Of a stretch of DNA of 64,000 bases, positions 2,047 through 55,346 are shown piece after piece. This stretch comes from an uncultured Acidobacteriota bacterium (GTDB lineage Bacteria > Acidobacteriota > Thermoanaerobaculia > UBA5066): NCBI GenBank assembly GCA_963836285.1, contig CAWIIN010000001.1, forward strand, positions 482,080 through 546,079. The letters run 5' to 3'. The translations under genes and the position numbers were made by a program. The notes under the pieces were generated by a model, which had not been told where the DNA came from, ran no database searches, and saw only the letters and a list, made by a program, of their open reading frames with translations. Numbering within the stretch: the first letter of the stretch is position 1; each line of letters begins with the position of its first letter.

Positions 2047-3362
2047 GCCGCCCGCCCGCGCCGCGCCGCGGCGAGCCTCTCGACGGTCCCGACGCAGTCC
2101 TTCGCCTTGTAGGCGCGGCCCCCCGTCTCGAGGAGGACGCGGTCGAAATCGCGGCACAGGCGGATGAGCCGGGCCGCGTTGCCCCGCGTGACCGGGAAGT
2201 CGAGCGCGAGCGAGAACCCGTCGGGCGCATAACCGCGGGGCGAGGCGTCCGCACGGTGCCTCTTGATGACGGCGAGCGACGAGACGACCTCCGCTTCCTG
2301 CTGCAGGACGAGCGCGCGCGCGAACGCCTCCTCGGCCTTCTCCTTCGGGACGAAGAGCTGGTACTGGATGAACCCGCCCGGCCGGTAGGACTCGTTCCAG
2401 CCCGGCAGGTAGTCGAGGAGGAACGAGTACGCGACGAGCGACTGGCGATACCGCGCCCGGCCCGCGAGACGGCCTGCGAGGAACTTCGCGGCGTTCACGA
2501 GACGCATCTGCGGGCCGCGGGCCGTGAGCTTCAGGCCGAGGAGGAGGAGCGGGACCGGGAGGGGACCCGTCCCGATGTCTGCGACCTGCTCCTCGACGGA
2601 GAGTCCCGTCGGCTCCTCCGGCGCGGCCGCGTGCTCGTTCGCGACGTGGACCACGCTGCGCCCGAGACCGCGCCCCGGGGCGAAGCAGTCCATCCAGCCG
2701 ACCACGTACTCCCAGGCGCTCTTGGCGCCGTCGAGCCCGGCGAGCGTGGCCGCCAGGTCGCGCGTCGCGAAGGCCTCGACGTCGAGATAGCCGGATCGGA
2801 CCCGCTTGAGGCGGAGCGCGACCTCCACGACCGGGTCGGCGGCGCGCGTGTTCCCGACGATCTCCGTCATTTCCGGGGTCCCGGCGCGCACCTCCTCGAG
2901 CCGGTCGTCCGGCCGGAGCACGACGACGCCCTCGAGGTGGTCGCCGATCGTCCCGCGCTTCCAGCCGTTCTTCCCGTGGACGTTCACGGCGACCGCGCCG
3001 CCGAGGGTGACGTGCATCGTGCCCGTGACGACCGGCGGCCAGAACCCTTTCGGGATGGACGTCTTCCACAGGTCCCCGAGCGTGAGACCGGCGCCCGCCC
3101 TCACGATGCCCGAGTCCTCGTCCAGGCTCCGGATCGCGTTCAGGCGTCCGAGCTCGACGACGGGCCCGTCCGGATTGAGGGCCGCGTCGCCATACGATCG
3201 GCCCGCGCCCCGGAAGACGGGCGTTTCACCGCGCGCGCGGCAGTCCGCGAGGACGGCGGCGAGCTCCTCGACGGACGCCGGACGGTGAACGGGCGCGACG
3301 CAGAAGTTGTAGAGGCCGAAGCCCTCGACGCGCTCGGGAGCGGGTCGCGCGGGAGCCGTCAC
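2043..3362 (-). CDS. FAD-binding oxidoreductase, DprE1-like (decaprenylphospho-beta-D-ribofuranose 2-oxidase family)
   Basis: 439 aa with a GTG start. It has an FAD-binding PCMH-type N-terminus (RGAGRSYGDAAL, GGAVAVNVHGKN). The C-terminus resembles DprE1, and the gene is paired with an SDR immediately upstream. Confidence 0.75.
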   Translation of the reverse strand: MTAPARPAPERVEGFGLYNFCVAPVHRPASVEELAAVLADCRARGETPVFRGAGRSYGDAALNPDGPVVELGRLNAIRSLDEDSGIVRAGAGLTLGDLWKTSIPKGFWPPVVTGTMHVTLGGAVAVNVHGKNGWKRGTIGDHLEGVVVLRPDDRLEEVRAGTPEMTEIVGNTRAADPVVEVALRLKRVRSGYLDVEAFATRDLAATLAGLDGAKSAWEYVVGWMDCFAPGRGLGRSVVHVANEHAAAPEEPTGLSVEEQVADIGTGPLPVPLLLLGLKLTARGPQMRLVNAAKFLAGRLAGRARYRQSLVAYSFLLDYLPGWNESYRPGGFIQYQLFVPKEKAEEAFARALVLQQEAEVVSSLAVIKRHRADASPRGYAPDGFSLALDFPVTRGNAARLIRLCRDFDRVLLETGGRAYKAKDCVGTVERLAAARRGRAA

Positions 3363-4138: not shown

Positions 4139-5146
4139 TCACGGCCAGAGGCGCTCCTTCTCCTCGTGCCAGTCGCGCGTGACGTCGAGCCAGAACGCGA
4201 GGCCCGCGTGGGGGCCGAACGGAGCGTAGAGCCGTACGATCCGCCCGTCGGGAACCCTGCGCCCCCGGAAACGCAGGGCCGCGACCTTCTTGCGCGACCA
4301 CGCGTCCAGGCCCAGCTTGCCGTGCCGGCCGAGGAGGCGTCCGAGCGTGTCGGCCGCGTAGGGGCCGAAGCCCTTCTCGGAGCGGATCTCCTCCTCGACG
4401 TCCTCGGCCGCGCGGGAGGCGTCCTCCCAGCGCGAGAGGTCGAGCGCGCCCGAGGCGACGCGCTCCGCGAACGCGGCGAGGTAAGGCGCCCGGTAGCCGA
4501 ACTTGAGCCGCTCGAGGTCGCGGGCCGAGAGACCGGCCACGAACGCCGCGTCGGGGAAGGCGCCACCCCGGTCGAATCGGCCGACGAGGTTCTTCACCAT
4601 GACCTTCGTGAGGCCCCACGTGCAGTTCGTCGTCGCGAGGACCTTCACGGCGTCCTCGAAGAGCGTCGGCGCGCGCAGGATCCTCCCCGCCCCGCGCCGC
4701 GCGATCCACGCGAAGCGCGGATCGCCGGCGCAAAGGGAATGGAAGGAAGCGAGTTCTGCTCGGAGGTCCAGGACGCGGTCGAGCACGCGACGAACGGCGA
4801 CGCGGGATGGAAGGTCCGAAGAGACCGGAAGAGATTCTTCGAATGGTAATTGCCCTCGCCCCCCCGCCGCCGAAACCGCGCTTGAGGCGCCGCCCCGCCG
4901 GGCCGCGCCGCCCCTCCCCTCTTCGCCCTTCGAAGAAATCCCTTGCGCCGAAGGCGCGACCGGTGATGCGGATGCGATCAGTCCGCTCGAACCGCGATGC
5001 ACGCGCAACTGCACGGGGCATTCACCGTCCAAGAAAACAAATCCGAGCCTGTGCTCCTCCGCATCCCAATGGAACGGAGGCAGGTCGTACCACCCGTGGC
5101 TGCGCACGACGAGGTCGAGGTCGAGGGGCTCGAGCGCGACCCTCAG
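4139..5146 (-). CDS. AlkA-like (HhH-GPD superfamily-like) DNA glycosylase family protein carrying an in-frame repeat-element insertion
   Basis: This is the C-terminal 335 codons of track ORF 4139..5971. Motifs are PLDLDLVVRSHGWYDLPPF.., ..GAGRILRAPTLFEDAVKVLATTNCTWGLT.. and ..FPDAAFVAGL. The start is uncertain: a CTG at 5146 gives a CTGA overlap with the PBP1A stop, or a downstream GTG could be used. Confidence 0.6.
   Translation of the reverse strand: MRVALEPLDLDLVVRSHGWYDLPPFHWDAEEHRLGFVFLDGECPVQLRVHRGSSGLIASASPVAPSAQGISSKGEEGRGGAARRGGASSAVSAAGGRGQLPFEESLPVSSDLPSRVAVRRVLDRVLDLRAELASFHSLCAGDPRFAWIARRGAGRILRAPTLFEDAVKVLATTNCTWGLTKVMVKNLVGRFDRGGAFPDAAFVAGLSARDLERLKFGYRAPYLAAFAERVASGALDLSRWEDASRAAEDVEEEIRSEKGFGPYAADTLGRLLGRHGKLGLDAWSRKKVAALRFRGRRVPDGRIVRLYAPFGPHAGLAFWLDVTRDWHEEKERLWP
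4808..4941. repeat. inverted-repeat element, copy 2 (in frame inside the glycosylase CDS)
   Basis: A purine-rich tract precedes the left arm GAGATTCTTCGAATGGTAA (4831..4854). The right arm is CCCCTCCCCTCTTCGCCCTTCGAAGAAATCC (4911..4941). Confidence 0.8.
5021..5050. repeat. additional solo arm in the glycosylase CDS
   Basis: TTCACCGTCCAAGAAAACAAATCCGAG compares with the right-arm consensus TTCACCTTCTAAGAAATC followed by CGAATCC. The core matches at 13 of 15 positions. Confidence 0.5.
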
Positions 5147-7590
5147 AACGGAGTCGCTCCCCCGATGCCGGGTCCGGGCGCGAGCTCGCCGCTCCCGTGC
5201 GGACAGCGCTGCTTCGGCTCGGTCCCCTGGAGAAAGACCTCGTCGAGAGACGCCGGGCACTCCTCGGTCACGAGGAGGCCGGTCGTCGGGTCGATCGAAG
5301 CCGTCACGACGCCGGGCGTCCTCGGGAACGGCGTCTCGAACGAGTGCGACGGGAGCCGGCGCACGAAGTCGGCCCAGATCGGCAGCGCGGCCGTCGAGCC
5401 CGACAGGTTGAGGCCCCGGTTGTCGTCGAACCCGACCCACACGGCGACGAGGAGGCGCGGAGAGAAGCCGATGAACCAGGCGTCGCGGCCGTCGTTCGTC
5501 GTGCCCGTCTTGCCCGCGAGAATCCCCTGCGCGCCGAGCCTCCTCGCCGACGCGCCCGTTCCGTGGTCCACGACGCCCCGCAGGACCGAGTCCAGCACGG
5601 ACACGGCGTCGGCGTCCGCCGCCCGCACGATCGGCGTGTCTTCCGACTCCATGCGGCGGGCCGACGGCGTTACGAGGCCGACGAGCGCGTTCGGCCGCAC
5701 GCGGAACCCGCCGTTCGCGAACGTGCAGTACGCGGCCGCGATCTCCATCGGGCTCGTCTCGAACGCGCCGAGCGCGAGCGACGGGTACGGCTTCAGCGGC
5801 GACGAGATCCCGGCGCGCCGCGCCGTCTCGACGATGTCCGGAAGGAGCGTCCGGCCGGGCGCCGTCCCGGTCACTGCGATGCGCACCGTCGGGATGTTGA
5901 TGGACTGCTCGAGCGCCTGCCGGGCCGTCATCGTGCCGCGGTACTCCCCGTCGTAGTTCTTCGGCGACCACGTCTCGTCCTCGCCCTTGCCCCAGACGAG
6001 CGCGATCGGCGAGTCGAGGTAGAGCGACGCGGGCGTGATCGGGGGCACGAGGTCGCGCTTGGCGAACGCGGTCAGGTAGACGAACGGCTTGAAGAGCGAG
6101 CCCGGCTGGCGGCGCGCCTGCACGACGCGGTTGAACTGCGAGACCTGGTAGTCGCGACCGCCGACGAGCGCCCGCACGGAGCCCGTGGAAGGGTCCAGCG
6201 CGATCAGCGCCGCCTGGAGCTGGTTGTCCTCTTCGCGGGAGCGCAGCCGGCGGAACTTCTTCTCGAGCTCCTCGAGCCCCTTCTGGACCGCGGCCTGCGC
6301 GGAGAGCTGCATGTCGGGGTCGAGCGTCGTGTAAATCGACGAGCCGTCCTCCTTCGAGAAGCCCGGGATCTCCTTCGCCTGGTTCAGCACGAAGTCCACG
6401 AAGTGGGGCGCGACGACGCCCGTCGGAGGAGCCGCGATCCGCGTGAGCGGGGCCGCGTTCGCGACGTCGAAGGCCGCGCGGTCGATCTTCTTCTGCTCGA
6501 GCATCCCCCTCAGGACGACCGCGCGCCGCTGCCGCGCGTTCTCGGGGTTCCGGAACGGCGAGTACTTGCCCGGCGACGAGATGAGACCCGCGAGCAGGGC
6601 GGCCTCGGGCAGCTCGAGACGCGAGGCGCTCTTGCCGAAGTAGAAGCGCGAGGCCTCCTCGACTCCCGTCACGGAGACCGAGCCGCGCTGGCCGAGGTAG
6701 ATTTCATTGAGGTACGCCTCGAGGATCTGGCTCTTCGAGTACTTCGCCTCGAGGATGACGGCCATCAGGGCCTCGACGGCCTTGCGCTTGAGCGTGCGCT
6801 CGGGCGTGAGGAACATGTTCTTGACGAGCTGCTGCGTCAGGGTCGACGTCCCGTGGACGCCCGCGCGCCGCGTGACGCTCTGGAGCACGGCGCCGACGAG
6901 GCGCCGCGGGGAGATCCCCGCGTGCGTGAAGAAGTCGCGGTCTTCCGTCGTGAGGATCGCGTCGAGGAGGATCTTCGGCACCTGGCCGAGCGTCACGAGG
7001 GTGCGGTCCTGCATCTTCTCGTCGAAGACCGTACCGACGATTTCCGGCTCGAAGACGACGTCCGGGAGTGGCGCGCCGTCCTCGACGCGGCGGACGGACG
7101 CGACGCGCCGGCCGGAGAACTCCAGGACCGCGGCCACGCCCGGCGTGCGCCCCCAGGCGGTCTCCCGGTCGTTCACGGAGACGGTGACGCGCCCCGGCGA
7201 AAGCGCGAACTGGCCGGGCTCGAGCGGCGGCTTCGGGACCTCCGCATACCGCAGCCGCGCGAGCCGGCGCGTCACGTCGTCGGGAGCGAGGGCGTCGCCC
7301 GGCCGCACGACCCAGACGTCCGAGTAGAGCCGCGTCGGGAGGCTCCAGCGCCGCCCGTCCATCGTCTTCGAGACGACGCGCGAGAAGTAGAGGACGACGA
7401 CGACGCCCGCGACGGCGAGCAGCGCCGCCGTCGCTCCGAGTGCGAAGATCACCGGCCGCGGGACGCGGGCGAGGAGACGGGCGGACGCGACGCTGACGGC
7501 CTTCAGGCGCGCGGACACCGCGGCCGCGACAGCCGCGAGGCGGGAGGCGAGCGCCTGGAATCTCCCGGGACCCGGCTCGGAATCGCTCAC
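5143..7590 (-). CDS. mrcA: penicillin-binding protein 1A (bifunctional glycosyltransferase/transpeptidase)
   Basis: 815 aa. It has the GT51 motifs EDRDFFTHAGI, GTSTLTQQLVKN and RKAVEALMAVILE. The transpeptidase motifs are SLFKP, SIN and KTGTT. Confidence 0.9.
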   Translation of the reverse strand: MSDSEPGPGRFQALASRLAAVAAAVSARLKAVSVASARLLARVPRPVIFALGATAALLAVAGVVVVLYFSRVVSKTMDGRRWSLPTRLYSDVWVVRPGDALAPDDVTRRLARLRYAEVPKPPLEPGQFALSPGRVTVSVNDRETAWGRTPGVAAVLEFSGRRVASVRRVEDGAPLPDVVFEPEIVGTVFDEKMQDRTLVTLGQVPKILLDAILTTEDRDFFTHAGISPRRLVGAVLQSVTRRAGVHGTSTLTQQLVKNMFLTPERTLKRKAVEALMAVILEAKYSKSQILEAYLNEIYLGQRGSVSVTGVEEASRFYFGKSASRLELPEAALLAGLISSPGKYSPFRNPENARQRRAVVLRGMLEQKKIDRAAFDVANAAPLTRIAAPPTGVVAPHFVDFVLNQAKEIPGFSKEDGSSIYTTLDPDMQLSAQAAVQKGLEELEKKFRRLRSREEDNQLQAALIALDPSTGSVRALVGGRDYQVSQFNRVVQARRQPGSLFKPFVYLTAFAKRDLVPPITPASLYLDSPIALVWGKGEDETWSPKNYDGEYRGTMTARQALEQSINIPTVRIAVTGTAPGRTLLPDIVETARRAGISSPLKPYPSLALGAFETSPMEIAAAYCTFANGGFRVRPNALVGLVTPSARRMESEDTPIVRAADADAVSVLDSVLRGVVDHGTGASARRLGAQGILAGKTGTTNDGRDAWFIGFSPRLLVAVWVGFDDNRGLNLSGSTAALPIWADFVRRLPSHSFETPFPRTPGVVTASIDPTTGLLVTEECPASLDEVFLQGTEPKQRCPHGSGELAPGPGIGGATPF

Positions 7591-21954: not shown

Positions 21955-22200
21955 ATGTCTGGACCCGTGTGGAAGCGCCTCCACCAGAAGGGCGCCTGCG
22001 ACTCCTGCGGCGAGACCTGCGACGAGCGCTACGCCGTCGGCACCGTCTTCGACTTCACGTTCCGGCCCGACGCGGCCTACTGCCCTTCCTGCTACGCCCG
22101 TTACGGGAGCCGCACGGACGAGCGGGACCCCGACGCCGTGAACCACATGCAGGCGCCGCGAACGCTGTCGCGCCCGAACTCGGTCAGCGACGTCGAGTGA
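21955..22200 (+). CDS. small zinc-ribbon-like protein (CxxC..CxxC), hypothetical
   Basis: 81 aa with CDSCGETC and CPSCY motifs. Its stop overlaps the GTG start of the next gene (GTGA). Confidence 0.45.
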   Translation: MSGPVWKRLHQKGACDSCGETCDERYAVGTVFDFTFRPDAAYCPSCYARYGSRTDERDPDAVNHMQAPRTLSRPNSVSDVE

Positions 22201-23432
22201 TCCTCGAACGGTTCGCCGGATCGCCCCTTCTCCCGATCGCGGAGAAGGTGGCGGCGGGGACGCGCCTCTCGATCGAGGACGGCGTCGCCCTGTTCGCGTC
22301 GCCAGACGTGCTCGGAGTCGGCGCGCTCGCGAACCACGTCCGCGAGAGAAAGCACGGGAACACGGCCTACTACAACGTCAACCGGTACCTGAACCCGACG
22401 AACCTCTGCTGGGTCGACTGCGCGCTGTGCGCGTGGGCGCGAAAGCCCGGCGTCGAGGGCGGATACACGATGTCGATCGAGGAGGCCGTCCGCGAGGCCG
22501 CCTCCGGCTGGCACGACGGGATCACGGAGCTGCACATCGTCGGCGGGCTCCACCCGTCGCTCCCTTACTCCTGGTACCTCGACCTCCTCCGCGCGCTGAA
22601 GGCGAGGTTCCCCGGCGTCCACCTCAAGGCCTGGACGATGGTCGAGGTGGACTGGATCGCGCGCGTCGCGAAGAAGGACGTCGTGACGGTCATCCGCGAG
22701 CTCCGGGATGCCGGGATGGACTCGTGCCCGGGCGGCGGGGCCGAGATCTTCGAGAGGCGCGTCCGCGACGTCATCTGCCGCGACAAGATCTCCGGGGAGC
22801 GCTGGCTCGAGGTCGCGCGACTGTGCCACGAGAGCGGCGTCAAGACGAACGTCACGATGCTCTACGGAAGCGTGGAGACCATCGAGGACCGCGTCGATCA
22901 CCTCGTCCGCATCCGCACGCTGCAGGACGAGACGCACGGCTTCCTCGGGTTCATCCCGCTCGCGTTCCACCCCGAGGAGACGCAGCTCCCTCACCTGCCC
23001 GCGGCGACCGGCATGACGGACCTGAAGGTCATCGCCGTCTCGCGCCTCATGCTCGACAACGTCGACCACGTGAAGGCGTACTGGGTGCAGATCGGCGAGA
23101 AGCTCGCCCCCGTCGCCCTCCACTTCGGAGCGGACGATCTCGTCGGCACGGTGACGGAGGAGACGATCACGCACGCGGCCGGCGCGACGACGGAAGCCGG
23201 GCTCTCGCGCGCGCAGATGGAGGCTCTCATCCGCGGCGCGGGCCGCGAGCCGTTCGAGCGCGACGCGTTCTACGAGCGCGTCGTGCGGGACGAGGCGGGA
23301 CGTGTGACTCGCGCGAACCGGCACGATTTCCGAGGTCACGAGCAAGAGGGAGATTCTTCGAAGGTCGGAAGGAAAAACACGGACATCGTGTCGCCTGCGG
23401 TCGGACTCGACGCCGCGATCGCGTCGAGCTGA
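22197..23432 (+). CDS. radical SAM menaquinone (futalosine pathway) enzyme, MqnE/MqnC family
   Basis: From the GTG at 22197 the protein shows YYNVNRYLNPTNLCWVDCALCAW (the CxxxCxxC cluster), GITELHIVGGLHP and GFIPLAFHPE. The last ~25 codons run into a solo repeat arm. Confidence 0.8.
   Translation: MILERFAGSPLLPIAEKVAAGTRLSIEDGVALFASPDVLGVGALANHVRERKHGNTAYYNVNRYLNPTNLCWVDCALCAWARKPGVEGGYTMSIEEAVREAASGWHDGITELHIVGGLHPSLPYSWYLDLLRALKARFPGVHLKAWTMVEVDWIARVAKKDVVTVIRELRDAGMDSCPGGGAEIFERRVRDVICRDKISGERWLEVARLCHESGVKTNVTMLYGSVETIEDRVDHLVRIRTLQDETHGFLGFIPLAFHPEETQLPHLPAATGMTDLKVIAVSRLMLDNVDHVKAYWVQIGEKLAPVALHFGADDLVGTVTEETITHAAGATTEAGLSRAQMEALIRGAGREPFERDAFYERVVRDEAGRVTRANRHDFRGHEQEGDSSKVGRKNTDIVSPAVGLDAAIASS
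23350..23372. repeat. solo left arm at the 3' end of the mqn gene
   Basis: GAGATTCTTCGAAGGTCGGAAGG. No convincing partner arm was found. Confidence 0.55.
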
Positions 23433-23456: not shown

Positions 23457-24797
23457 CTAGTTCGGCGCCGCCTCCATCTGCTTCTTGATCGCCGCGATCA
23501 TGCGGTCCGATCGCTGCTCGGCCGGCAGCGCTTCGGCATACGCGAGCATCTCCTCGAGCGTTTTTTTCGCCGCGGCGGGGTCCCCCTTCTTCTTCAGGAT
23601 GTCGACCCGTCCGCGGTAGACGACGAGCTTTCGCGGGCCGTACGCGCGCGCCATGGCGCGGTCCGAGGCCGCGAGGGCCTCGTCGTACTTCTGCATCGCG
23701 GCGTACGCGACCGCGAGGCGGGCTGGCGGGTTGTAGTCGTCCGGAAAGTCCTTCTCGGACGCGAGGAGCGCCGGGACGACGCGCTCGGGCTGTCCGAGCG
23801 CGAGGCAGATCCCCGTGCGGTGCGCGTCGAAGACGGCGCGTTCCGCGGGCGTCTTCGCCTTCGCGGCCTGCCCTTCGAGGTACTCCGCGCAGCTCTCGAG
23901 GATCTTCTTTCTTCCCGCGTCGTCCTTCGCGGCTTCCCGCTCGTCGGCGAGGGACTGATACAGGGAGGACACGTCGTCGGCCGCGAGGCCCGTCTTCGGC
24001 CCCTCGACGACCTCGCGCGCGTAGCCGGCGAACGTCGCGACGAGGCCCGCCTTCCGCGGATCGTCGTCCTTCAGCCCGAGGGCGCAGTCGAGCCCCGAGC
24101 CTGCGACGTTCGCGGCGGACGGCGTCGTCTTCAGGTGGCTCCACGCGTCGCGCGCCGTTGCGGCGCAGGCCTCACGTTCGCCGGACGTGGAGAGCGCGAA
24201 GAGGAGCGATTCGACGACCCGCGGGTACGACGAGGAGCCGGGCTCGAGCGTCTCGAGCGCCTTGCGGTACGCGGCGGCGGCCTCCTTGTAGCGACCGTCC
24301 GCGTAGAGCCGATCCGCTTCCGCGAGCGGGGCGGCAGGAGCCGACTTCCCGCGCGCCGCCTTCTCGCCGTCGTCCAGGACGCGGACCATCTGGGGAACGG
24401 TCGCGCCCCCCACCCATCTCAGGACGATCTTCTCGGCCGCGGGGTCGATCACGTAGAACGACGGCCACACCTTCACGGGATACTTCCCGAGCACGGCCGC
24501 GTTCTCCTTCTTCTCGGTGTTGATCGAAAGCCAGACGAACCGTCCGGCCTGCCGCCCGAGCGCCTTGTCCGTGAAGACGAAGGCCCTCATGGAGCGGCAC
24601 GTGTGTCACCAGGGTGCCCAGGCCTCGAGGAAGATCGGCTTCTTCGAGGCCCGCGCCGCGGCGAGCGCCTTCGGGTAGTCGTCCGCGATGAACGGGAGGA
24701 CTTCGCGCGGTGCCGGAGCCGAGGACGCGAAAGAGGCCCCGCGGGGACGGCGAAAAGGGCGGCGGCGACGGCCGCCGGGAACAGGTGGAATGCTCAT
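23457..24797 (-). CDS. thioredoxin-fold + TPR protein with an in-frame TGA at the redox motif (WAPW-U-HTC), a candidate selenoprotein
   Basis: Track ORFs 24606..24797 and 23457..24590 are in the same frame. They are separated only by the TGA at 24608..24606 and 5 codons. The join reads [17 protein letters not shown], i.e. the thioredoxin WCxxC site. TPR-like repeats follow downstream. The N-terminal frame is doubtful. Confidence 0.6.
24552..24597 (-). promoter_or_regulatory. candidate bacterial SECIS-like hairpin starting 9 nt 3' of the in-frame UGA
   Basis: Hand-folded pairs are CCGCUC/GGGCGG, GAG/CUC, GCCUU/AAGGC and GUC/GAC, with the apical loop UUCACG. It was not scored with any model. 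Confidence 0.35.
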
Positions 24798-24868: not shown

Positions 24869-27800
24869 CACGTAGCTGCCGTCGGACGTCGCGTTGTCGT
24901 TCAGGACGCCGTACGCGGCGAAACGGGAGCTTCCGGAGATCCTCTCGATCTTCGCGTAGCCGGCGCAGAGCCCCGAGCGCCGCGAACGGCCGGCCGAACT
25001 GGAACCATTGCCCGGGGCCGAGAGGCTGGTCGGCGGGGACGCTGGCGAGAGGGCTGCCGTTCGAGTCCGAAGAGGGTCACACGCAGACCGATCGAGTCGC
25101 CCGCGTCTCCCCGGTTCACGAGCGCGAGATTCGAGCGCTGTGCCGCGTTCTCCTGGAGACCGTAGACGAACGCCGTGCCGGTCGCGCACTCGGCCGGCGT
25201 GAGGCCCGGGTAGAAGAGTCCGTACGAGCCCGCGGGCGCGAGCGGCACGTACGTGCGCGCCCCGACCGCGAGCGCGCTCGCGGGCGTGCCCGGCGCCGCC
25301 TTCACGAGGAGGGATCCGCCGACGTCGCGCCCGTCGTTCTCGATCGGAAGCGTCGTGCGAAGGAACGCGATCGCGTCCGGAACGATCCGCTGCTCCCCCG
25401 CCGCGAGGGTCAGGGCGATCTCGCCCGTGCCGCTCCCGAAGGCGGCCGTGTACGCGAGCGCGAGCGGAAGCGGAGACGCCGTGAGGTTCGTCAGCGTGAG
25501 CTCGGTCCGGAAGCGCGCGCCGAGGCCCGCGACGTCGAGGACGATCGGCACGAGCCGGTCCGCGCCCGAACCGTCGTCGCCGAGCAGGGGCGGGACGTAC
25601 GAGCCGTCCGACGTGACGCCGTCGTTCAGGACCGCGTACGCCGTGAACGGGGAGGCGCCGGAGACGCGGGTCACGACCGCCCTCCCGGACGCGGCCTTCC
25701 CCGCGAGCGGCTGGTCGTACTGGAACCAGCCCCACGGGCCGAGGGCGAGATCGGGCAGCGTCCCGAGATCCTCGCCGTTCGGGCCCTGGAGCGCGACGCG
25801 CACGACGATCGACGACCCGCCGGCGTTCACGACCGCCACGTTCGAGCGCTGCGAGGCGCCCTGCTGGAGGCCGAAGAGCGTTGCGGACGCTCCCGTCGAC
25901 CGGGCCGCCGGGTATGCGAGGCCGAACGTCCCGGCGCCTCCCGCGGGATCGGGCGTGAAGGTGCGCGCCCCCGCGAAGACGAGACCCGGCGATCCGACGC
26001 CGCGGAACGTCGCGAGGAGCGTTCCGACCTGGCTCGAGCCGTCTGCGGGAATCGGCAGGCCCTGGCCGCGCAGCCAGTCGACGATGCCGGGCAGGACGCG
26101 CATTTCTCCCGCCGCGAGCGTGAGGCGCGCGAACCCCGAGCCGGAGCCGACCGAGGCGGTGTAGGAGAGGATCACGTCCGTCGGCGCACCCGCGCGCGCG
26201 ACGAGGGTGAGCTCGGACCGGTAGTGGCTGCCGCCGACGCCCGAGGCCTCGAGGACGACCGGGACGAGGAGCCCGACGTCCCCGGCGGCCGGGGCGGGTG
26301 CGGTGACGTTGACGGTGAGCGTGGCCGCTCCCGTCCCTCCGCTCGCATCGCGCGCCGTGAGCGTGACGTGGAAGGCCCCGGGCACGGCGTACGCGTGCGC
26401 CGCCGGCGCCGGCCCCGTCGCTCCTCTCCCGTCGCCGAAGTCCCAGGCGAGCGTCACGGCGTCGCCGTCCGGATCCGTCGCCGAGCCGACGAACGCCACG
26501 GGAGCGCCGGCTTCGACCGTGAACCCCGGCGCCGGAGACTGGATCACGGGGACGGGCGGCCGATTCGAGATCGACGCCGCGGACGGCGCCGAAAAGAAGA
26601 GGTCGAGGGCGGAGCCCGTGTCGTCCGCCCACGAGACGACGATCGTTCCGCCCGCGCCCGCGGAGACCGAGACGCGGCCGGGTCCGCCGATGCCGTCGAC
26701 GGGATCGCCCGCGCTCCCGGAGAGCCCGCCGTTCGCGGAGAGGTTTACCGGGGGCGTGAACGTCGCACCGCCGTCCGTCGAACGCGCGACGCGGGCGTCG
26801 CTCTGGACGTCGTTCGCGTCGAACTCCTCCCAGGCGACGTCGATCGCACCCGAGGGCTCGAAGACGACGGACGGCACGTAGGACTGGTCCGCCGCCGCCG
26901 AGAGGAGGACGGGGCTCGAGAACGAGGTGCCGCCGTTCGTCGAGCGCCTGAACGTGATCTGCCGGTTCTGGAGCGCGTTCGCGACGATCGAGCGCGTGTA
27001 GAACGCGAGCGCGACGCTGTCGTCGGGCCCGACCGCGAGGTCCGGCGCGAGCGCGTAAACCGCCGCGTCCGACACGGTCGCGGCCGCCCCGAACGCGGCG
27101 CCCGCCTTCGAGACGGAGAGCCGGACCGCGGAGGACGTCGAGGACTGCTTCGTCCACGCGAGGAACGCGTCGTTCTTCGAGTCGAGGGCAATGCCCGGCC
27201 GCGCGAAGACCGACGGGGCATCGAAGATCGGAACCTGTGTCGAGAAGGCCGTCCCCCCGTTCGTCGAGCGGGACCACTCCACGACCGGCGCCGTGTCCGA
27301 GAGGTCGTACCAGACGACGACGAGGTTTCCGTTCCCGTCGGCGGCGATGTTCGGCAGCTCCGCGATCCGTCCTCCGGCGCTCACCGCGGCGGGCGCCGAG
27401 AACGTGGCGCCGCCGTCCGCCGAGCGCGCGAAATAGACGCGCGGCGCGGTGTCGGCGATCGTCCGCCCCTGCCAGACGACGAAGATGCGCCCGGTCGGGT
27501 CGATCGTGAACGTGCTCTCGTACGCGAAAGACCCGTTCGGGTTCAGCGCGAGCGGCGGGGAGAACGTCGTCCCGCCGTCCGTCGAGCGCCTGTAGGCGAC
27601 GTTCGAGCCGGTCACCGCGGAGGTGTCGTCGTCCGCGACCGCGTGCAAGACGCCCGCGGCGTCCGACTTGACCGTGCCCGTGGAGAAGCCGGCCGACCCC
27701 GTGACGTTCACGGGAGCCGGGAGCGCGCCGGAAGGCCTCACCGTGAGGCGCATGCGTGTCCCGCGGACGAGGCCGCCGGCGGACGCCGCGACGCCGAGGA

Positions 27801-29592
27801 CGTAATCGCCCGGCGGCGTCGAGGCCGGCACCGCGACCGTGAGGCGCACGGCCTGGCCGGGCATCGCCGAACCGCTCGCGAGAGTCAGGCCGAGGCCGGC
27901 CGGAGCGAGGTCCGGGGCGAGCGCGAGCGTTCCCGCGAAGCCGCTCTCGCCCGAAGCGGCGAAGTCGAACGTCGCGGTTCCGCCCTGCGGAGCGGCCGCG
28001 TATGTCGTGACCGCCGAGAGGCCGAAGTCGGGCGCGAGCGCGTCGAACGCCTCCGGGACCGCCGCCGCCCAGACGTCCGCATCGCCCGAGCGTTCGTCCG
28101 TCCAGGCGGCGTAGAAATTGCCGCCGTCCGCCGCGAGGCCGTCGTACGACGTGTGGCCGAATCCCCCGAGGCTGTGCGGCGCCGGCGCCCACGGGGAATT
28201 GCGGTCCGTGAGCCGGAAGTTCTTCCCCCACGTCGCGCCGCCGTCACGCGAGATCGCCATGTACTGGTCCGTCAGGGTGTCCCGGGCCGCGTCGTTCCGG
28301 CGGTCGGCCCAGCGCACGCCCACCGTCCCGTCCGCCAGCGCGGCGACCGACGGAAACGCCTGCGTCGTGGACGTCCCGTCGTCGTTGAGCTTGCGGGCCG
28401 CGGAGAACGTCGCTCCGTTGTCCGTCGAGCGCGCATAGAAGACGTCCGAGCGGTCCGTCGTGCCGGTCGAGACGGCGGCCCAGACGACGTGGACGACGCC
28501 GCTTCCGTCCACGGCGAGCGAGGGACCGGAATTCGACGCGGCGGCGCCGCCGCCCGCCGTCACGGGGCCCGCGGGCCGGAACGTCGCAACCGTATGCAGG
28601 GAGCCGAAGAGCTGTCCGCCGTCGGTCGAACGCGTGATCGAGATTCCGCCGGGCGAATAGTGTCCGTCCTGGTACGCGACGTACACGTCCCCGTTCGGCG
28701 CGACCGCTACCGCCGCATGGTCGACCGGGGCGCCATCGATCAAGTTGAGCGACGCGGGCGGCAGGAAGGTGGCCCCGCCGTCGGAGGAGCGCGCGAAGAA
28801 GATCGCCGTGACGCCGTAGTACGTGAAGTAGTCGGTCCACGCGACGTAGACCTGCCCCCTCCGCGGCGACGACGCGCCGTTGTCGACGGCGACCGCGGGC
28901 CTGTCCATCACGTCGTAGCCGTTCTCGACGTAGCTCGAGGGGCTCGAGGACCCCGAGAACGTCTCTCCGCCGTCCGTGGACTTCGCGAGCTCGACGCCGG
29001 TCGGGTCGCCGTTCGCCGCCGCGAGGGATGCATAGTAGATCTCGCCGGCCGAGCCGATCGCGACCGACGGGCTCCCCCAGTTGTAGATGCCGTCGGGCTC
29101 CGGGATCCGCATGTGGGCGAACGTCGCACCACCGTCGTTCGAGACGCCGTAGCCGGCCGCCGAGTACGTCGAGTCCTCGAAGCCGACGAAGACGCGCGAG
29201 CCCCGCGCGGCGACGGACGTCGTGCGGCTCGCGTGATGGTCGACGTCGAGCGTCGGGTCGTTCACACGGACGTTCTGGCGCGGAGCCGGAGCGGCGAGCG
29301 CCGCCGCCGCCGCGGCGCGCGCCTCCGGGACGCGCGGTCTCGCCGGGACGCGCGCCGGAGCCGGCGCGAGAGAGTTCGCGACGAGAACTGCCTGCCGGGC
29401 TCCCGGCGACAGCGCGGACAGGATCCCGGGCTCGAGCGCCCAGGAGAGCCGCGACGGCGTGGCGGGCGCGGTCCCGTCGGGAGCCGGACGCGGCCCGGCC
29501 GCCGAACCCGGATGAGAGACGAAGAGAAAGAGGGGAAGGAGGAGAAGATTTCTTAGAAGGTAAGAAAGATTGCGGGGGCGGCGCTGCGACAA
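24854..29592 (-). CDS. giant secreted BNR/sialidase-like repeat + PKD-domain protein with a tandem C-terminal domain; the 3' end is broken by two +1 frame shifts
   Basis: Track ORF 24901..29592 shows repeated S-x-D-x-G-x-T-F/W motifs (STDGGATF, SRDGGATW). A PKD domain is present (VAFVGSATDPDGDAVTLAWDFGDG). The true C-terminus continues in two other frames and ends ..YGVLNDNATSDGSYVPMTF at 24854. Confidence 0.8.
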
Positions 29593-33263: not shown

Positions 33264-35015
33264 ATGAGCACCCAGCCCCCGACGGACAGCGGCCCGGCGC
33301 CCGAGAAGAAAAAGTCCCGCGCGCCGAAGGGCGCGGCGAAGCCGCGCGCCAAGGCCGCCAAGGCGGCGGCCGCGCCGCCCGCGACGAAGGCCGACGAGAT
33401 CATCGAGGCCCTGAAGGCCGCGGCGCGCGACAAGGAAATCGAGTTCGAGCGCCTCGTCGCCGCGCTCGAAGAGGCGATCGCGACGGCCGCGCGCAAGGTC
33501 TACAAGGTGCGTGAGATGGCGGCGCGGTTCGACCCGGCGACCGGCCTCCTGACCGCCTGGACGCCCTACCGGATCGTCGAGCAGAAGACGAAGCCCGAAG
33601 AGCCCGAGCCGGAGGCCGCGCTCGATCCGGACGACGTGCCCCTCGGCGCCGCCGCGGCGCCCGTCCCGGCCGCGGCTGCCGTCCCCGTCGATCCCGACAA
33701 GGAGATCCGCCTTCCCTGGATCGAGGTCCTGCCCGAGGAGGCTGCCGCGCTCCTGACCGGAGACCTCGCCGGCCAGATCTGGCAGGCCGTCCGGAATCCG
33801 AAGGGCGAGGCTTCGGTCGGCGAGGAGGAGATTCTCGACCCCGCCGCCACCGCCCTCGCGATCGGCGACGAGATCCGCCTGTACCGCTCGACCGACGGCC
33901 TCGGCCGCATCGCGGCGCAGAGCGCCAAACAGGTGCTCTACCAGAAGCTCCGCGAGGCCGAGCGGGACAACATCTACAACGAGTACTTCCCGAAGGTCGG
34001 GGAGCTCATCACGGGCACGGTGAAGCGTTTCGAGCGCGGCGACATGATCGTCGACCTCGGCCGCACCGAGGCCGCGATCCCGCGCGAGCACCAGTCGCGC
34101 GCCGAACGCTACACGCAGGGCGAACGCGTGCGCGGCGTCCTCGTGGACGTCCACAAGAACCCGAAGGGCTCGCAGATCATCCTCTCGCGCACGGCGCCCG
34201 AACTCCTCATGCGCCTCATGGAGATGGAGGTCCCCGAGATCTACGACGGCACCGTCGTGATCCGCGGGTGCGTCCGCCAGCCCGGCGACCGCGCGAAGGT
34301 CGCCGTCTCGTCCCGCGAGCGCGACGTGGACCCGGTTGGCGCCTGCGTCGGCATGCGCGGCGCGCGCGTGCAGGCGATCATGCGCGAGCTGCGCGGCGAG
34401 CGCATCGACATCATCCAGTACTCGGACGACCTCATCACGTACGCCCAGAACGCGCTCTCCCCCGCGAAGATCACGCGCGTCTCGGCGATGCCGGCCGACG
34501 AGGAGGGCGAGCCCGAGATCGGCGCCGACGGCGAGCCCATCGAGCCGGTCCCCACCCTCGAATGCATCGTCGAGGAGGACCAGCTCTCCCTCGCGATCGG
34601 CAAGCGCGGCCAGAACGTCCGGCTCGCCGCGGCCCTCATCGGCGCGCGGATCGAGATCAAGAGCGAACAGGCCGTCAAGGCCGAGGTCGCGCAGGCCCTG
34701 CAGCGGATGCTCATCGCGTCCCAGCGACGGGGCACGTCCCTCGCCGAGGTGCCCGGGCTCGAGGAGTCCTCCGCGGCCGCGTTCGTCGCCGCGGGCTTCG
34801 CGACCGCGGGAGATCTCCTCGACGCCGCCTCCGGCGAAAGCGAGAGCCCGCTCACCGAGGTCGCGCTCGACCCGGCAGTTCGCGACGCGGCGATCGAGGC
34901 CGTGCGCGCCTACGAAGAGGCGCCCGAGGACGAGGACGAAGGCGAGACGCTCGAATTCCAGGAAGTGACCGAGACCGAGGGCGAAAAAGGCCCCGAGGGA
35001 GACCCGCAGACTTGA
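33264..35015 (+). CDS. nusA: transcription termination/antitermination factor NusA (K/A/P-rich N-terminal extension, insert in the N-terminal domain)
   Basis: 583 aa. It has the S1 domain (GELITGTVKRFERGDMIVDLG), KH domains (SRTAPELLMRLMEMEVPEI, ACVGMRGARVQAIMRELRGERIDI, GKRGQNVRLAAALIG) and an acidic tail. Confidence 0.9.
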   Translation: MSTQPPTDSGPAPEKKKSRAPKGAAKPRAKAAKAAAAPPATKADEIIEALKAAARDKEIEFERLVAALEEAIATAARKVYKVREMAARFDPATGLLTAWTPYRIVEQKTKPEEPEPEAALDPDDVPLGAAAAPVPAAAAVPVDPDKEIRLPWIEVLPEEAAALLTGDLAGQIWQAVRNPKGEASVGEEEILDPAATALAIGDEIRLYRSTDGLGRIAAQSAKQVLYQKLREAERDNIYNEYFPKVGELITGTVKRFERGDMIVDLGRTEAAIPREHQSRAERYTQGERVRGVLVDVHKNPKGSQIILSRTAPELLMRLMEMEVPEIYDGTVVIRGCVRQPGDRAKVAVSSRERDVDPVGACVGMRGARVQAIMRELRGERIDIIQYSDDLITYAQNALSPAKITRVSAMPADEEGEPEIGADGEPIEPVPTLECIVEEDQLSLAIGKRGQNVRLAAALIGARIEIKSEQAVKAEVAQALQRMLIASQRRGTSLAEVPGLEESSAAAFVAAGFATAGDLLDAASGESESPLTEVALDPAVRDAAIEAVRAYEEAPEDEDEGETLEFQEVTETEGEKGPEGDPQT

Positions 35016-38000
35016 AGACGACCGCCGCCAAGTTCACCGTCGCCCAGCTCGCGAAGATGATGGGCAAACCCGCGAAGGAGGTGCTCTTCCTCCTCCAGGG
35101 CATCGGCGTCGACGTCAAGACCGCCGAATCCGTCCTCGATGCCGCTACCGCAACCGCGCTTCTCGCGGGCAAGACCCAGGCGCCGAAGTCCCTCATCGTG
35201 CGGCAGGCACCGACGGCCCCTTCGGCGGCCGCCGCCGCGACCGCGGCGGCCGCGAAGGCCCGGACGGAGCGCGCGGCGCTCAAGCGCATCAAGATCGTCG
35301 AGAAGACGGCCGACACGGAACTCGCGGAGCCCACCGAGGCCGCGAGCGGGACCCCGGCCGCCGAGACCGCCACGGCCGCAACCGAGACTCCCGCCCCGAG
35401 CGCCGCAGAAGCACCCGCGGCGCCCCCCGCCGAGGCGCGCGCGGCCGAGGCGGCGACTCCCGAGCCGAAGGCGGAGACGAAGCCCGAGCCGCCCGCGGCT
35501 CCGGAGGTTGCTCACGCCCCCGCCGCGGCCCCGGCGACGTCCGTCCCGCGTCCGTCCGCCCCCCCCGCGCGCGTCGCGCGTCCTCCCCTGCCGCCGCAGC
35601 CGGCGCGTCACGCGGCTCCGCCGACACGCCCCGCCGCGCCTCCGGCACCCGCGGGCGCTCTCCAGCGCCTGCTGAAGCGCGAAGGCGGCCTGCCTCCGCG
35701 GCCGACCGGGAACCCGGCGACGCCGGTCCCGCCGCCGCAGCTGCGCGGCGACCTCATGTCGGCCTACGGCGCGAGCGCCGGTCCGAACTCACCGGGCGTC
35801 ACACACGTTCGTGCCGCCGCCCCCTCCGCTCCCGCGCAGGCCGGCGCCCCCTCGACGCCAGCCGCTCCGCTTCGGGGCGCCGGTGGTCTCGGACGCGCGG
35901 TCATCGCGCCTCCGAGCCCGTCCACGCTGCGTCCGATCCGCACCGCCACTCCGGTCATGCCGTCCGGACCCCGTCCCGGCATGCCGCCGCGCCCGTCGGG
36001 CTTTCCTCCCCGTCCGGGCTTCGCGCCCCGTCCCGGCTACGCGCCGCGGCCGGGCGGCCCCGGCGGTCCGGGATTCGGCCCCCGTCCCGGCTTCGGCCGT
36101 CCGCCGCTCGGCGGGCCCGTTGCCCCGGCGCTGCCGGACAGCGCCGACCGGCGGAAGAAGGACGCGACGAAGCCCGGCCTCGCCGCCAAGAAGGGCGACG
36201 CGAAGAAGACGGAGTCGAAGAAGCCGCGTACGAAGGAGGTCTCCGCTCTCGAGGAAGACGTGCGGGAGTACCTCGGGTCGTACAAGCAGGACACGTACGA
36301 GGACATTCCGACACCGATCACCGAAGGCTCTGACGAGGCTCTCGCGGCGGCCGCCGGAAAGCCGCTCAGCAAGTCGGCGCAGCGCCGCGCGGGCAAGAAG
36401 ACGATCGCGACGGAGACGGGCGAGGTCGTCGAGGTCAAGAAGAAGGCGTCCGGCCCCGTGTTCCTCTCCGAGGGCGTCACCGTCAAGGAGCTGTCGGAGA
36501 AGCTCGGCGTCCTCGCGAAGGACCTCATGAAGGCGCTCCTCGCGCGCGGGATCTTCGCGACGATCAACCAGACCGTCGACCCGAAGCTCGCGATCGACAT
36601 CGCCAAGGAGTTCGGGGTCGAGGCGGCCGTCGTCTCGTTCGAGGAGGAGCTCGAGCTCTCCCGCCAGCAGAACGCGATCGACCACGCCGCCGACGCGCCG
36701 GACACGAACCTCGCGGACGCGTCCGCGGGCGGCGAGCGCGTGCCCCGCGCCCCCGTCGTGACCGTCATGGGCCACGTCGACCACGGCAAGACCTCGCTTC
36801 TCGACGCGATCCGCAAGGAGAACGTCGCCGAGGGCGAGGCGGGCGGCATCACGCAGCACATCGGCGCCTACCGCGTCGAGACGAAGGGCAAGACGATCGT
36901 TTTCCTCGACACCCCGGGGCACGAGGCGTTCACGCTCATGCGCTCGCGCGGCGCGAAGGCGACGGACATCGTCGTCCTCGTCGTCGCGGCCGACGACGGC
37001 GTCATGCCCCAGACGTCCGAGGCGATCGACCACGCGCGGGCCGCGAAGGTCCCGATCGTCGTCGCGATCAACAAGATCGACAAGCCGGACGCGAACGTCC
37101 AGCGCGTCAAGCAGGAGCTCGCCGAGAAGGGCGTCCTCGTCGAGGAGTTCGGCGGCGACGTCGTCGCGTGCGAAATCTCCGCGAAGAAGAAGGTCGGGAT
37201 CGACCAGCTCCTCGAGATGATCCTCCTGCAGGCAGAGGTTCTCGAGCTCAAGGCCGTCGCGACGGGCGCCGCCCGCGGCGTCGTCCTCGAGTCGCGTCGC
37301 GAGGCCGGCAAGGGGACGCTCGCGACCGTGCTCGTCCAGCAGGGCACGCTGCACGTCGGCGACGTCTTCTTCGCCGGAGCGGCCGTCGGCCGCGTCCGCG
37401 CGATGCACGACGACCGGGGGGCGCGTCTCGCCGAGGCCGGCCCCGCGACCCCCGTCGAGGTCATGGGGTTCGAGGACCTTCCGAACGCAGGCGACACGCT
37501 CCAGGTCGTCGGCGACGAGAGCAAGGCGCGCCAGGTCTCCTCGTACCGCTCCCAGAAGGAGCGCGAGGAGTCGCTCGCGAAGTCCTCGCGGATGTCTCTC
37601 GACTCGCTCTTCAACCGCATGAAGGAGGGCGTCGCCAAGGACCTCGCGCTCATCGTGAAGGCCGACGTCCACGGCTCCGAGGAAGTCCTCGTTCAGACGC
37701 TCGGCAAGCTGCCGTCCGACAAGGTGAAGGTCTCGATCCTGCACTCGGGCGTCGGTGCGATCTCCGTGAACGACGTGCTCCTCGCGGCCGCGTCCGAGGC
37801 GATCATCATCGGCTTCAACGTGAAGCCCGAGAAGAAGGCCCAGGACCTCGCCGACCACGAGGGCGTCGAGATCCGGCTCTACTCCGTCATCTACACGCTC
37901 ACGGACGACATCAAGAAGTCCATGGCCGGCCTCCTCGACACCGTCAAGAAGGAGGTGACGCGCGGCCACGCGGAGGTGCGCGAACTCTTCAAGGTGCCGA

Positions 38001-38251
38001 AGATCGGCACGATCGCGGGCTGCATGGTCACGGACGGGACCATCCCCCGTTCCGCGGGCGTCCGCCTCGTGCGCGACCACCGGGTCATCTACGAGGGCAA
38101 GATCGGCTCGCTCCGGCGCTTCAAGGACGACGCGTCCGAGGTCAAGCAGGGCTTCGAGTGCGGCATCGGGATCGCCGGCTACCAGGACGTGAAGGTGGGC
38201 GATGTGATCGAGGCCTTCGTCGTCGAAGAGGTCGCGGCGTCGCTGACCTGA
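35012..38251 (+). CDS. infB: translation initiation factor IF-2
   Basis: A TTG at 35012 overlaps the nusA stop (TTGA); ATG at 35054 or 35057 are alternative starts. The N-terminal region is P/A-rich. The GTPase motifs are [21 protein letters not shown] and NKID. The C-terminus is conserved. Confidence 0.9.
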
Positions 38252-47145: not shown

Positions 47146-47154
47146 TGGTAAATT
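47146..47154 (+). promoter_or_regulatory. candidate extended -10 (TGgTAAATT) upstream of actA
   Basis: An AT-rich motif 14 nt upstream of the actA ATG. No clear -35 element was seen. Confidence 0.25.
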
Positions 47155-47167
47155 CCCGGCCCTCCGA

Positions 47168-47820
47168 ATGCCGCAGATCTTCAACCGGTCGACGAACGCC
47201 ATCGCGCGGATTTCCATCTGGGGCGCCGTGTTCATTCTCACGGGCGTCGCCTGGGCGGCGTCCGTCCTGAACCGCTCGGCCTACAACACGAACCAGGGCG
47301 TCGCGATCAAGCAGCCGATTCCATTCGCGCACGAACACCACGTCGGGGGCCTCGGGATCGACTGCCGCTACTGCCACGCGTCGGTCGAGAAGAGCTCCAC
47401 GGCCAGCATCCCGCCGACGGCGACCTGCATCAACTGCCACAAGCTCATCTGGAACGACAGCCCGATGCTCGAGCCCGTGCGCGAGAGCTTCCGGACCGGG
47501 AAGCGGCTGAACTGGGCGAAGGTCTACGACCTGCCGGACTTCGTCTATTTCGACCACAGCATCCACGTGAACAAGGGGATCGGCTGCGTCACGTGCCACG
47601 GCCGCGTGGACCGGATGCGGCTGACCTACCAGTACCCGTCGCTGCAGATGGAGTGGTGCACCGGATGCCACCGAGACCCGGAGAAGTACCTCCGCCCGAA
47701 GGACAGGATTTTCGACCTCGCGTGGAAGGCCGACGACCAGGCCGCCCTCGGCGCCGCCCTGAGGAAGGAGTACGGGATCCGCTCCTCCTACGCCCTCACG
47801 AACTGCAGCACGTGCCACCG

Positions 47821-47824
<4 letters not shown>
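47168..47824 (+). CDS. actA: alternative complex III subunit ActA (pentaheme cytochrome c)
   Basis: 218 aa with an N-terminal TM helix. There are five CxxCH motifs: CRYCH, CINCH, CVTCH, CTGCH and CSTCH. Confidence 0.85.
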
Positions 47825-50769
<2,945 letters not shown>

Positions 50770-50964
50770 CGAGAGAAGAGCGAGAGACGAAAGAGATGAG
50801 GAAAGAAGAGGGGAAGAGAGATTTTCTTCTGAAGGGAATGGGGCGGGAGTCGCGCCGCGGCTCGCGACGCGCGGCGGTGCCGCCCTCTTCCCCTTCTAAG
50901 AGAATCCCCGGTCTCCCCTCTTCACCTTCTCAGAGATTCTTCTCTTCTCCTTTCTTCGTCTCCG
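50770..50964. repeat. inverted-repeat element, copy 12 (fills the actB-actC spacer; two right arms)
   Basis: A ~50-nt polypurine tract precedes the left arm GAGATTTTCTTCTGAAGGGAATGGGG (50818..50843). The right arms are CCCTCTTCCCCTTCTAAGAGAATCCCC (50883..50909) and CCCCTCTTCACCTTCTCAGAGATTC plus a polypyrimidine tract (50916..50964). Confidence 0.9.
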
Positions 50965-50977
50965 GGGGTCTGTTCTG

Positions 50978-52347
<1,370 letters not shown>

Positions 52348-52351
<4 letters not shown>

Positions 52352-54922: not shown

Positions 54923-55346
54923 GCCCCGCGGACCGGGCGCCCCTCACGGCGGCCCCATCGACTCCGAGCTCAACTTCAAGGGGATCTTCGGCTTCGTCGG
55001 CGGGCTCGCCCTCGTCTGCGCGGTTGCCTTCGCCCTCATGTGGGGCCTCGCCGTGCTGGAGAAGAAGCGCCTCGAGGGCCAGGACGCGCCGCCGCCCGTT
55101 CTCGCCGAAGCCCGGGCGAAGAGCGTCCCTCAGGGTCCGATCCTGCAGAGCGACCCCGAGCGGGACCTCAGGACGCTCCGAACCCGCGAGGAGGCGGTCC
55201 TGTCCGGGTGGGGCTGGACCGACGCCGCACGAACCCACGCCCGCGTTCCCGTCGACCGCGCTCTCGAGATCGTCGCCGCGAGAGGTTTCCCTCCTCGCAC
55301 CGCGCCTCCGCCCGCGGCCGCTCCCGCTCCCGAGGTGAAGAAGTGA
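54915..55346 (+). CDS. single-pass membrane protein in the ActG position
   Basis: 143 aa with one TM helix (FGFVGGLALVCAVAFALMWGLAV). It overlaps both neighbouring genes. Confidence 0.5.
   Translation: MAEPRGPGAPHGGPIDSELNFKGIFGFVGGLALVCAVAFALMWGLAVLEKKRLEGQDAPPPVLAEARAKSVPQGPILQSDPERDLRTLRTREEAVLSGWGWTDAARTHARVPVDRALEIVAARGFPPRTAPPPAAAPAPEVKK

Follow-up and report, generated by a model that had tools for sequence, protein, structure and literature searches.

The window analysed here, a 64-kb stretch of DNA in its entirety, is part of a 763,606-bp contig of an uncultured Acidobacteriota bacterium and has a G+C content of 70%. Its minus strand carries a gene (23457..24797) for a thioredoxin-fold protein that is interrupted by a TGA codon in the redox motif. 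We read the locus as one gene. It would encode a thiol-disulfide oxidoreductase of a type that is exported in its relatives, with selenocysteine (Sec) in the active site and a tail of tetratricopeptide repeats (TPRs). The UGA at 24608..24606 would be decoded by SelB with the help of a downstream hairpin. We put the probability of this reading at roughly 0.88. On the sequence comparisons described below, the in-frame TGA itself is very probably a Sec codon in a thioredoxin-like active site.

Gene structure and Sec/Cys alternation

The minus-strand frame runs from an ATG at 24797 to a TAG stop at 23459..23457, and it is broken solely by the TGA at 24608..24606, which is codon 64. Open reading frame (ORF) analysis bore out the coordinates and the reading of an earlier first-pass annotation, which had described two minus-strand ORFs in one frame separated by this TGA. 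The first ORF (24797..24606) encodes 63 aa and the second (24590..23457) encodes 377 aa, with the frame open again from 24605. Together they give a product of 446 aa; full-length Cys homologues have 442 to 447 aa. The TGA stands at the first position of the redox motif in W-A-P-W-[U]-H-T-C, with U-H-T-C at 24608..24597.

In a scan based on G+C at third codon positions (GC3), gene junctions and antisense artefacts aside, this TGA alone in the window lay in frame between two stretches with coding signal. A GC3-based search of the window for further selenoprotein genes found none. The "same-frame" junctions of RecO/GlyQ and DegP/BNR were rejected as candidates, being ordinary adjacent genes. The window's other genes mostly end in TGA. 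Because TGA is their usual stop, there is no global reassignment of the code.

The protein has two parts. The thioredoxin-fold domain (residues ~39 to 150; 24348..24683, minus strand) spans the UGA. When U was replaced by C for Pfam matching, Thioredoxin_7 (PF13899) scored 37.2 bits against a cutoff of 27 over residues 39 to 101, and PF00085 scored 25.8 bits against a cutoff of 23.5 over residues 46 to 121. Both alignments run across the TGA, in keeping with the first-pass view of a thioredoxin-fold motif with TGA in place of its first Cys. The rest of the protein (residues ~153 to 446; 23460..24341, minus strand) is an all-helical, TPR-like superhelix, as judged from Pfam matches, an AlphaFold2 model, Foldseek and invariant columns. 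The Pfam families TPR_12 and TPR_19 match this part slightly under their cutoffs.

The AlphaFold2 model was that of P0002, a Cys homologue 79% identical to the window protein. It has a predicted local distance difference test score (pLDDT) of 92 and a predicted template modelling score (pTM) of 0.87. Residues 1 to 23 are disordered, consistent with a signal peptide, and residues 35 to 150 form a β-α-β thioredoxin fold. A strand (residues 54 to 59) leads to C63-H-T-C66, and helix 1 spans residues 64 to 73, so that the Cys equivalent to U lies directly before this helix. In the model, the residue equivalent to U thus occupies the canonical nucleophile position. The VWP proline, P112, in the Pro loop before strand 3, is invariant. 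Residues 153 to 440 are all-helical, and the whole tail of the model has about 17 helices. The top Foldseek matches in the PDB were TPR superhelices (LGN and consensus TPR proteins), and Escherichia coli YbbN (3QOU) ranked sixth. Two cysteines, C211 (24167-24165) and C238 (24086-24084, both minus strand), lie on adjacent helices of the TPR domain and are invariant across the family. They may form a structural disulfide in the exported protein, or they may be a second redox site.

The gene family is common in Thermoanaerobaculia (Acidobacteriota). We compared codons in the best 80 of 321 related loci, taken from species-representative genomes, nearly all of them metagenome-assembled genomes (MAGs) of Thermoanaerobaculia/Acidobacteriota. 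The first-pass annotation had proposed aligning homologues to see whether this column holds Cys or Sec. At the residue 64 column, the codon is TGA in 67 of the 80 loci and TGC or TGT in the other 13, never TAA or TAG. With 84% of the sampled species, Sec is therefore the majority state. Around this column, the motif [AST]WAPW-x-H[TS]C hardly varies among the compared loci, and the protein is kept in frame on either side of the TGA down to about 50% overall identity. The metagenome Cys forms P0002 to P0004, which are 78 to 79% identical to the window protein, read WAPWCHTC, as do P0058 to P0062. In a neighbor-joining tree that is otherwise all Sec, Cys forms appear at no fewer than four separate places, a count that is approximate because the tree has no bootstrap support. 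P0002 to P0004 are an additional Cys case within the window's own clade.

A protein search showed that close homologues fall into two length classes, most of 372 to 385 aa and a minority of 442 to 471 aa. The short ones begin at a Met just past the TGA. The long ones carry thioredoxin domains and have a typical signal peptide at the N terminus. These lengths bear on the possibility, also raised in the first-pass annotation, that the locus is a nonsense-mutated pseudogene or two genes, one for a 63-aa peptide and one for a 377-aa TPR protein starting from the ATG at 24590. Public gene calls agree with such a split: nearly all TGA forms are called as proteins of 372 to 385 aa from that Met, under the name "tetratricopeptide repeat protein" or "hypothetical protein." However, 67 other species-level genomes share this TGA, which splits a thioredoxin domain. 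In the Cys forms, too, the Met at 24590 stands invariantly inside the protein (CRSMRAFVF), and the Cys forms P0002 to P0004 are each one continuous gene.

The upstream part is also constrained as coding sequence. Over the 28 codons upstream of the TGA, differences among the Sec forms numbered 14815, 9899 and 21283 at the first, second and third codon positions, respectively, so that the third position varied most and the second least. The ratio of synonymous to nonsynonymous changes was 0.63 upstream of the TGA and 0.62 downstream (codons 25 to 52). The same pattern of codon positions and the same ratio on both sides indicate that the upstream part is translated in this frame. Therefore, the shared TGA column, the coding constraint and the tree together exclude a private nonsense mutation and two separate genes, and we regard any explanation of that kind as extremely improbable.

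A hairpin directly downstream of the UGA

The coding sequence past the UGA contains a hairpin resembling a selenocysteine insertion sequence (SECIS) element at 24548..24601 on the minus strand, which we delimited by folding and by comparing Sec and Cys forms. Its lower helix pairs 24601-24592 with 24557-24548 (alignment columns 8 to 17 with 52 to 61). Its upper helix pairs 24588-24575 with 24570-24558 (columns 21 to 34 with 39 to 51) and has a bulged C at 24579 (column 30). The apical loop, UCAC, lies at 24574-24571, 31 nt past the UGA. The first-pass annotation had placed a hairpin at 24597..24552, starting 9 nt after the UGA. That hairpin is real, but it is only the inner part of a helix that extends over about 24601..24548 and starts 4 to 6 nt past the UGA, not 9.

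The 70 nt past the TGA in the window have a minimum free energy (MFE) of -35.6 kcal/mol (z = -2.78), and none of 200 shuffled sequences was as stable. Nearly every TGA form takes the same fold. RNAalifold gave an implausible consensus of -3 kcal/mol for the 68 Sec forms, that is, the 67 loci and the window, and we therefore counted the MFE structure shared by the individual sequences instead.

The hairpin separates Sec forms from Cys forms. Its MFE over columns 8 to 62 was -30.9 ± 3.1 kcal/mol in the 68 Sec forms versus -18.9 ± 4.8 kcal/mol in the 13 Cys forms (Mann-Whitney p = 2e-8; p = 2e-7 with divergent Sec forms only). The background was -19.3 ± 4.9 kcal/mol in 1496 other windows of the same genes, of which 0.9% reached the Sec mean. 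In the structure described above, 86.6% of cells were paired in the Sec forms versus 64.7% in the Cys forms. The hairpin is thus kept in homologues that have the TGA and degraded in those that have Cys, which is the conservation that the first-pass annotation had said a Sec reading would need.

Codon choice within the hairpin follows the same division. The Arg codon 7 past the U, which follows an invariant Met, is AGG in 53 of the 68 Sec forms and in 1 of the 13 Cys forms, and the remainder of the gene uses AGG for only 7.7% of its Arg codons. At codon 16, 67 of the 68 Sec forms have CTC. At codon 20, 67 of the 68 have GCC, whereas 9 of the 13 Cys forms have GCG. This codon usage shows selection on the RNA, with codons bent to keep the pairing.

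We suggest that this 54-nt hairpin, 4 to 6 nt past the UGA, is a SECIS element that would recruit SelB with Sec-tRNA(Sec). SelB would then deliver Sec to the ribosome, and translation would go on through the C-terminal 382 residues. The TGA/Cys column, the continuous gene and the Sec-specific hairpin all support the selenoprotein reading with which the first-pass annotation began.

Counterevidence and the decoding of the UGA

Several observations weigh against this reading. The hairpin shows weak covariation: both partners differ in only three of its pairs, and the result was not significant against a shuffle control. The weakness arises because the hairpin columns hardly vary, and the analysis is confounded by coding constraint. 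Nor does the apical loop contain an invariant G. The base after UUCAC is G in 49 of 68 Sec forms, C in 18 and A in 1, and the bacterial SECIS consensus of bSECISearch reportedly has a conserved G in a small apical loop. Some bacterial SECIS elements deviate from the consensus (PMC9312934). An Rfam scan of the window at gathering thresholds gave no match. Searches of the 64-kb window and of some 600 kb of related loci revealed neither selA, selB or selD nor a tRNA-Sec gene. Finally, the window copy as assembled would not be exported, since the core of its signal peptide is out of frame.

The result for the Sec machinery agrees with the first-pass annotation, which had found no selA, selB, selC or selD in the window. 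ARAGORN found no tRNA genes in the window and a single one, for tRNA-Leu, among 60 of the fetched loci. A tblastn search of the window and the 80 loci for SelA, SelB and SelD, with approximate E. coli queries, matched only the GTPase IF2, at 36755-37468. The first-pass annotation had also taken an fdhD gene in the window as a hint of a formate dehydrogenase elsewhere. No such gene was confirmed, as Pfam or NCBIfam scans of 33 ORFs gave no match to the FdhD family.

The lineage offers indirect support for the use of Sec. Two related MAG contigs, of 861 kb and 1.5 Mb, have a PrdB/GrdB-family gene about 0.7 to 0.8 kb from a Sec-form gene. One copy is on the minus strand of L075 at 4935-5708, with a TGA at 5198..5196, and is the same gene as L081 10001-10744. 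The other is L083 10001-10750, on the contig of L044. The PrdB/GrdB-like gene scored 49 bits against PF07355 (cutoff, 22), and its TGA coincides with the first Cys of VCP[MF]C, a CxxC motif, in full-length homologues. This first Cys is the known Sec position in PrdB/GrdB, a selenoprotein family established by experiment. Gene callers split the gene into ORFs of 160 aa and 85 to 87 aa. Many homologues have 160 aa and others about 245 aa; those of about 245 aa that we read have Cys, and the 160-aa ones are probably cut at the same TGA. The sequence past the PrdB-like TGA in L075 folds no better than shuffles (z = -0.13). An MsrA near the PrdB-like gene (L081 and L083) was rejected as a selenoprotein because it has Cys (GCFWG). 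The PrdB-like TGA gene beside a Sec form speaks indirectly for Sec at the level of the lineage. The Sec trait has been recorded in Acidobacteria (PMC1794560). A literature search linking Thermoanaerobaculia or Thermoanaerobaculum to selenocysteine found nothing relevant.

The UGA could also be recoded through the hairpin and SelB but receive Cys or another residue from a selC*-type tRNA-Cys, or it could be read through by a near-cognate tRNA. Opal-suppressing tRNA-Cys of the selC* type and unusual allo-tRNAs do exist, and allo-tRNAs occur in Acidobacteria (PMC5389517). However, selC* was reported from Firmicutes, Thermodesulfobacteria, Nitrospirae and Proteobacteria, not from Acidobacteria (PMC5389517). 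Repeated switches between TGA and TGY at a redox-active catalytic Cys, accompanied by a conserved hairpin, are the standard signature of Sec, and a second classical selenoprotein family, the PrdB-like one, shows the same pattern in this lineage. We therefore consider insertion of a residue other than Sec very unlikely.

The N terminus of the window copy needs separate treatment. Relatives begin with MRTTxFxAALAAALxAAPAA...APREVLPF. In the window, the frame as assembled gives MSIPPVPGGRRRRPFRRPRG and reads MSIPPVPGGRRRRPFRRPRGASFASSAPAPREVLPF, with no hydrophobic core, and the homologous core of the relatives (LFPAAVAAALFAVPAG) lies in the +1 frame. The affected signal-peptide region is at 24737..24794 on the minus strand. 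The copy has one extra base near 24788-24783 and lacks one base from the G run at 24740-24737, after which the frame is restored. We think that this disturbance is probably due to assembly indels in a GC-rich, repetitive stretch.

A different explanation is that the family consists of genuine selenoproteins and that the window copy is inactive or decaying. The two indels would then scramble the signal peptide and leave the product cytoplasmic or unstable. The as-assembled N terminus, which has no hydrophobic core in frame, fits this explanation. However, the reading frame is exactly restored after the second indel, and outside this region the gene is intact and highly conserved. L008, which is the closest relative among the genomes and comes from a bin of the "MFD" MAG series, has a different single frameshift in the same GC-rich stretch, at about 3000-3020 of its locus, which points to assembly error. 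Other long genes of the window are unbroken, for example, the IF2 ORF at 34268..38251. A decaying copy is therefore improbable in our view, although less so than insertion of another residue at the UGA.

Relation to known proteins and neighboring genes

If the locus is a functional Sec gene, the following mechanism may be proposed. In the relatives, a cleavable signal peptide would direct export, and the product would act in the periplasm or the cell envelope. The mature U-H-T-C center at the N terminus of helix 1 would form a U64-C67 selenenylsulfide and work as a thiol-disulfide oxidoreductase, and any redox direction assigned to it is presumptive. The TPR superhelix, of about 290 residues, would most likely hold a partner or a substrate or client protein.

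The protein resembles the Sec-containing UxxC oxidoreductases of the thioredoxin fold (Trx, PF13098, DsbA-like, DsbG-like and Prx-like; PMC1794560 and PMC13188914), in which UGA replaces the N-terminal nucleophilic Cys. It shares with them the existence of Cys orthologues and a hairpin within the ORF directly downstream of the UGA, and its predicted export is like that of the Dsb-type members. Unlike these families, it forms a sequence family of its own, whose best Pfam match is Thioredoxin_7 and for which PF13098 is below the cutoff. Its fusion to a TPR domain of about 290 residues and the predominance of Sec among the sampled species are further differences. TPR is mentioned neither in the selenoprotein family table of a 2026 review nor in the text of a 2022 review (PMC9312934).

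The NCBIfam models of thioredoxin-like selenoproteins, NF041383 (VPGUxxT type 2), NF041199 (Trx7/PDZ) and NF045694 (TsoB), describe the same fold and have weak local similarity to the thioredoxin domain. One of them is also of the Thioredoxin_7 type. However, our protein falls far below their cutoffs (19.8 versus 275 bits, 18.2 versus 300 bits and 27.6 versus 805 bits, respectively). Their motifs are VPGUxxT, CxxU and UxxxxU, compared with WAPWUHTC here, and their partner domains are PDZ and rhodanese/DsbD, compared with TPR here. Models of the DsbD C-terminal domain, TlpA and DsbE were also missed (NF001419, 30.2 versus 330 bits; NF011941, 17.5 versus 359 bits; NF047696, 16.1 versus 230 bits).

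Among solved structures, the E. coli chaperedoxin YbbN/CnoX (3QOU) has the same order of domains, a thioredoxin fold followed by TPRs. Foldseek aligned both domains (E = 2.7e-5), but the superposition is poor, with template modelling (TM) scores of 0.20/0.30 and a root mean square deviation of 25 Å, and sequence identity is 15%. YbbN is cytoplasmic, whereas signal peptides are present in the relatives of our protein. Our protein also has a TPR part roughly twice the length of that in YbbN, and its active site is a complete U/CxxC with Sec. A search by sequence found one solved structure only, PDB 2KUC, a "putative disulphide-isomerase," which matches the thioredoxin core past the active site (E = 3.2e-5). 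It is a single domain of 130 residues with neither TPR nor Sec.

These proteins are a new, uncurated and systematically misannotated family inside the well-known UxxC class of thioredoxin-fold selenoproteins, and the mechanism is not new. It is possible, although we think it doubtful, that they amount to more: an undescribed family of exported, "chaperedoxin-like" Trx-TPR proteins of Thermoanaerobaculia in which Sec is ancestral and dominant, Cys has replaced it at least four times, and the SECIS element does without the consensus apical G. A SECIS element of that kind would imply a SelB of somewhat different RNA specificity.

Public annotations cut nearly every TGA member at the stop and thereby lose its signal peptide and catalytic site. 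Once the Sec codon is recognized, a whole exported redox enzyme would be regained for a soil and sediment lineage that is widespread and mostly uncultured, and the bacterial selenoproteome would gain one more family. The natural Sec/Cys pairs, with the hairpin kept in one and decayed in the other, form a clean data set on how a SECIS element constrains coding sequence. They also bear on the preference for Sec over Cys in an extracytoplasmic thiol oxidoreductase.

Upstream of the ATG at 24797, the motif CCGTATAGT lies at 24809-24804 on the minus strand and is kept in most close relatives. The motif shows up as a conserved "PYS" when the upstream sequence is translated, and its TATAGT end is 6 nt before the start codon. 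At this position, relatives farther away apparently have a TATGAT-like box. A -10-like box so near the ATG suggests, by its sequence and placement, a leaderless mRNA. A two-hexamer sigma-70 scan found no full promoter upstream of this ATG. Downstream, a terminator-like stem-loop with a T run lies at 23376..23392 on the minus strand, 65 nt past the stop codon; this signal is weak, with one site versus 0.9 expected in shuffles.

The family has no conserved operon partner, as no neighbor was common to more than 12 of the 80 loci. In the window, the gene is convergent with that for the aminofutalosine synthase MqnE (21969-23432, plus strand; TIGR03700, 473 bits). A BNR/PKD repeat protein of 1563 aa (24901-29592) is encoded upstream on the same, minus strand. 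Because these two adjoin the gene only in the closest relatives (L001 to L013), they are not functional partners of the family.

Farther away, an open frame of 1205 codons from stop to stop (47152-52351, plus strand) has an N-terminal molybdopterin-oxidoreductase signature of the twin-arginine translocation (TAT) type and QrcB- and QrcC-like parts. By its sequence, this region looks like an alternative-complex-III or a Qrc-type quinone-interacting complex. The frame is followed by an NrfD-family membrane subunit, and SCO1/SenC (54923-56173) and cytochrome oxidase subunit III (58744-59454) are encoded downstream.

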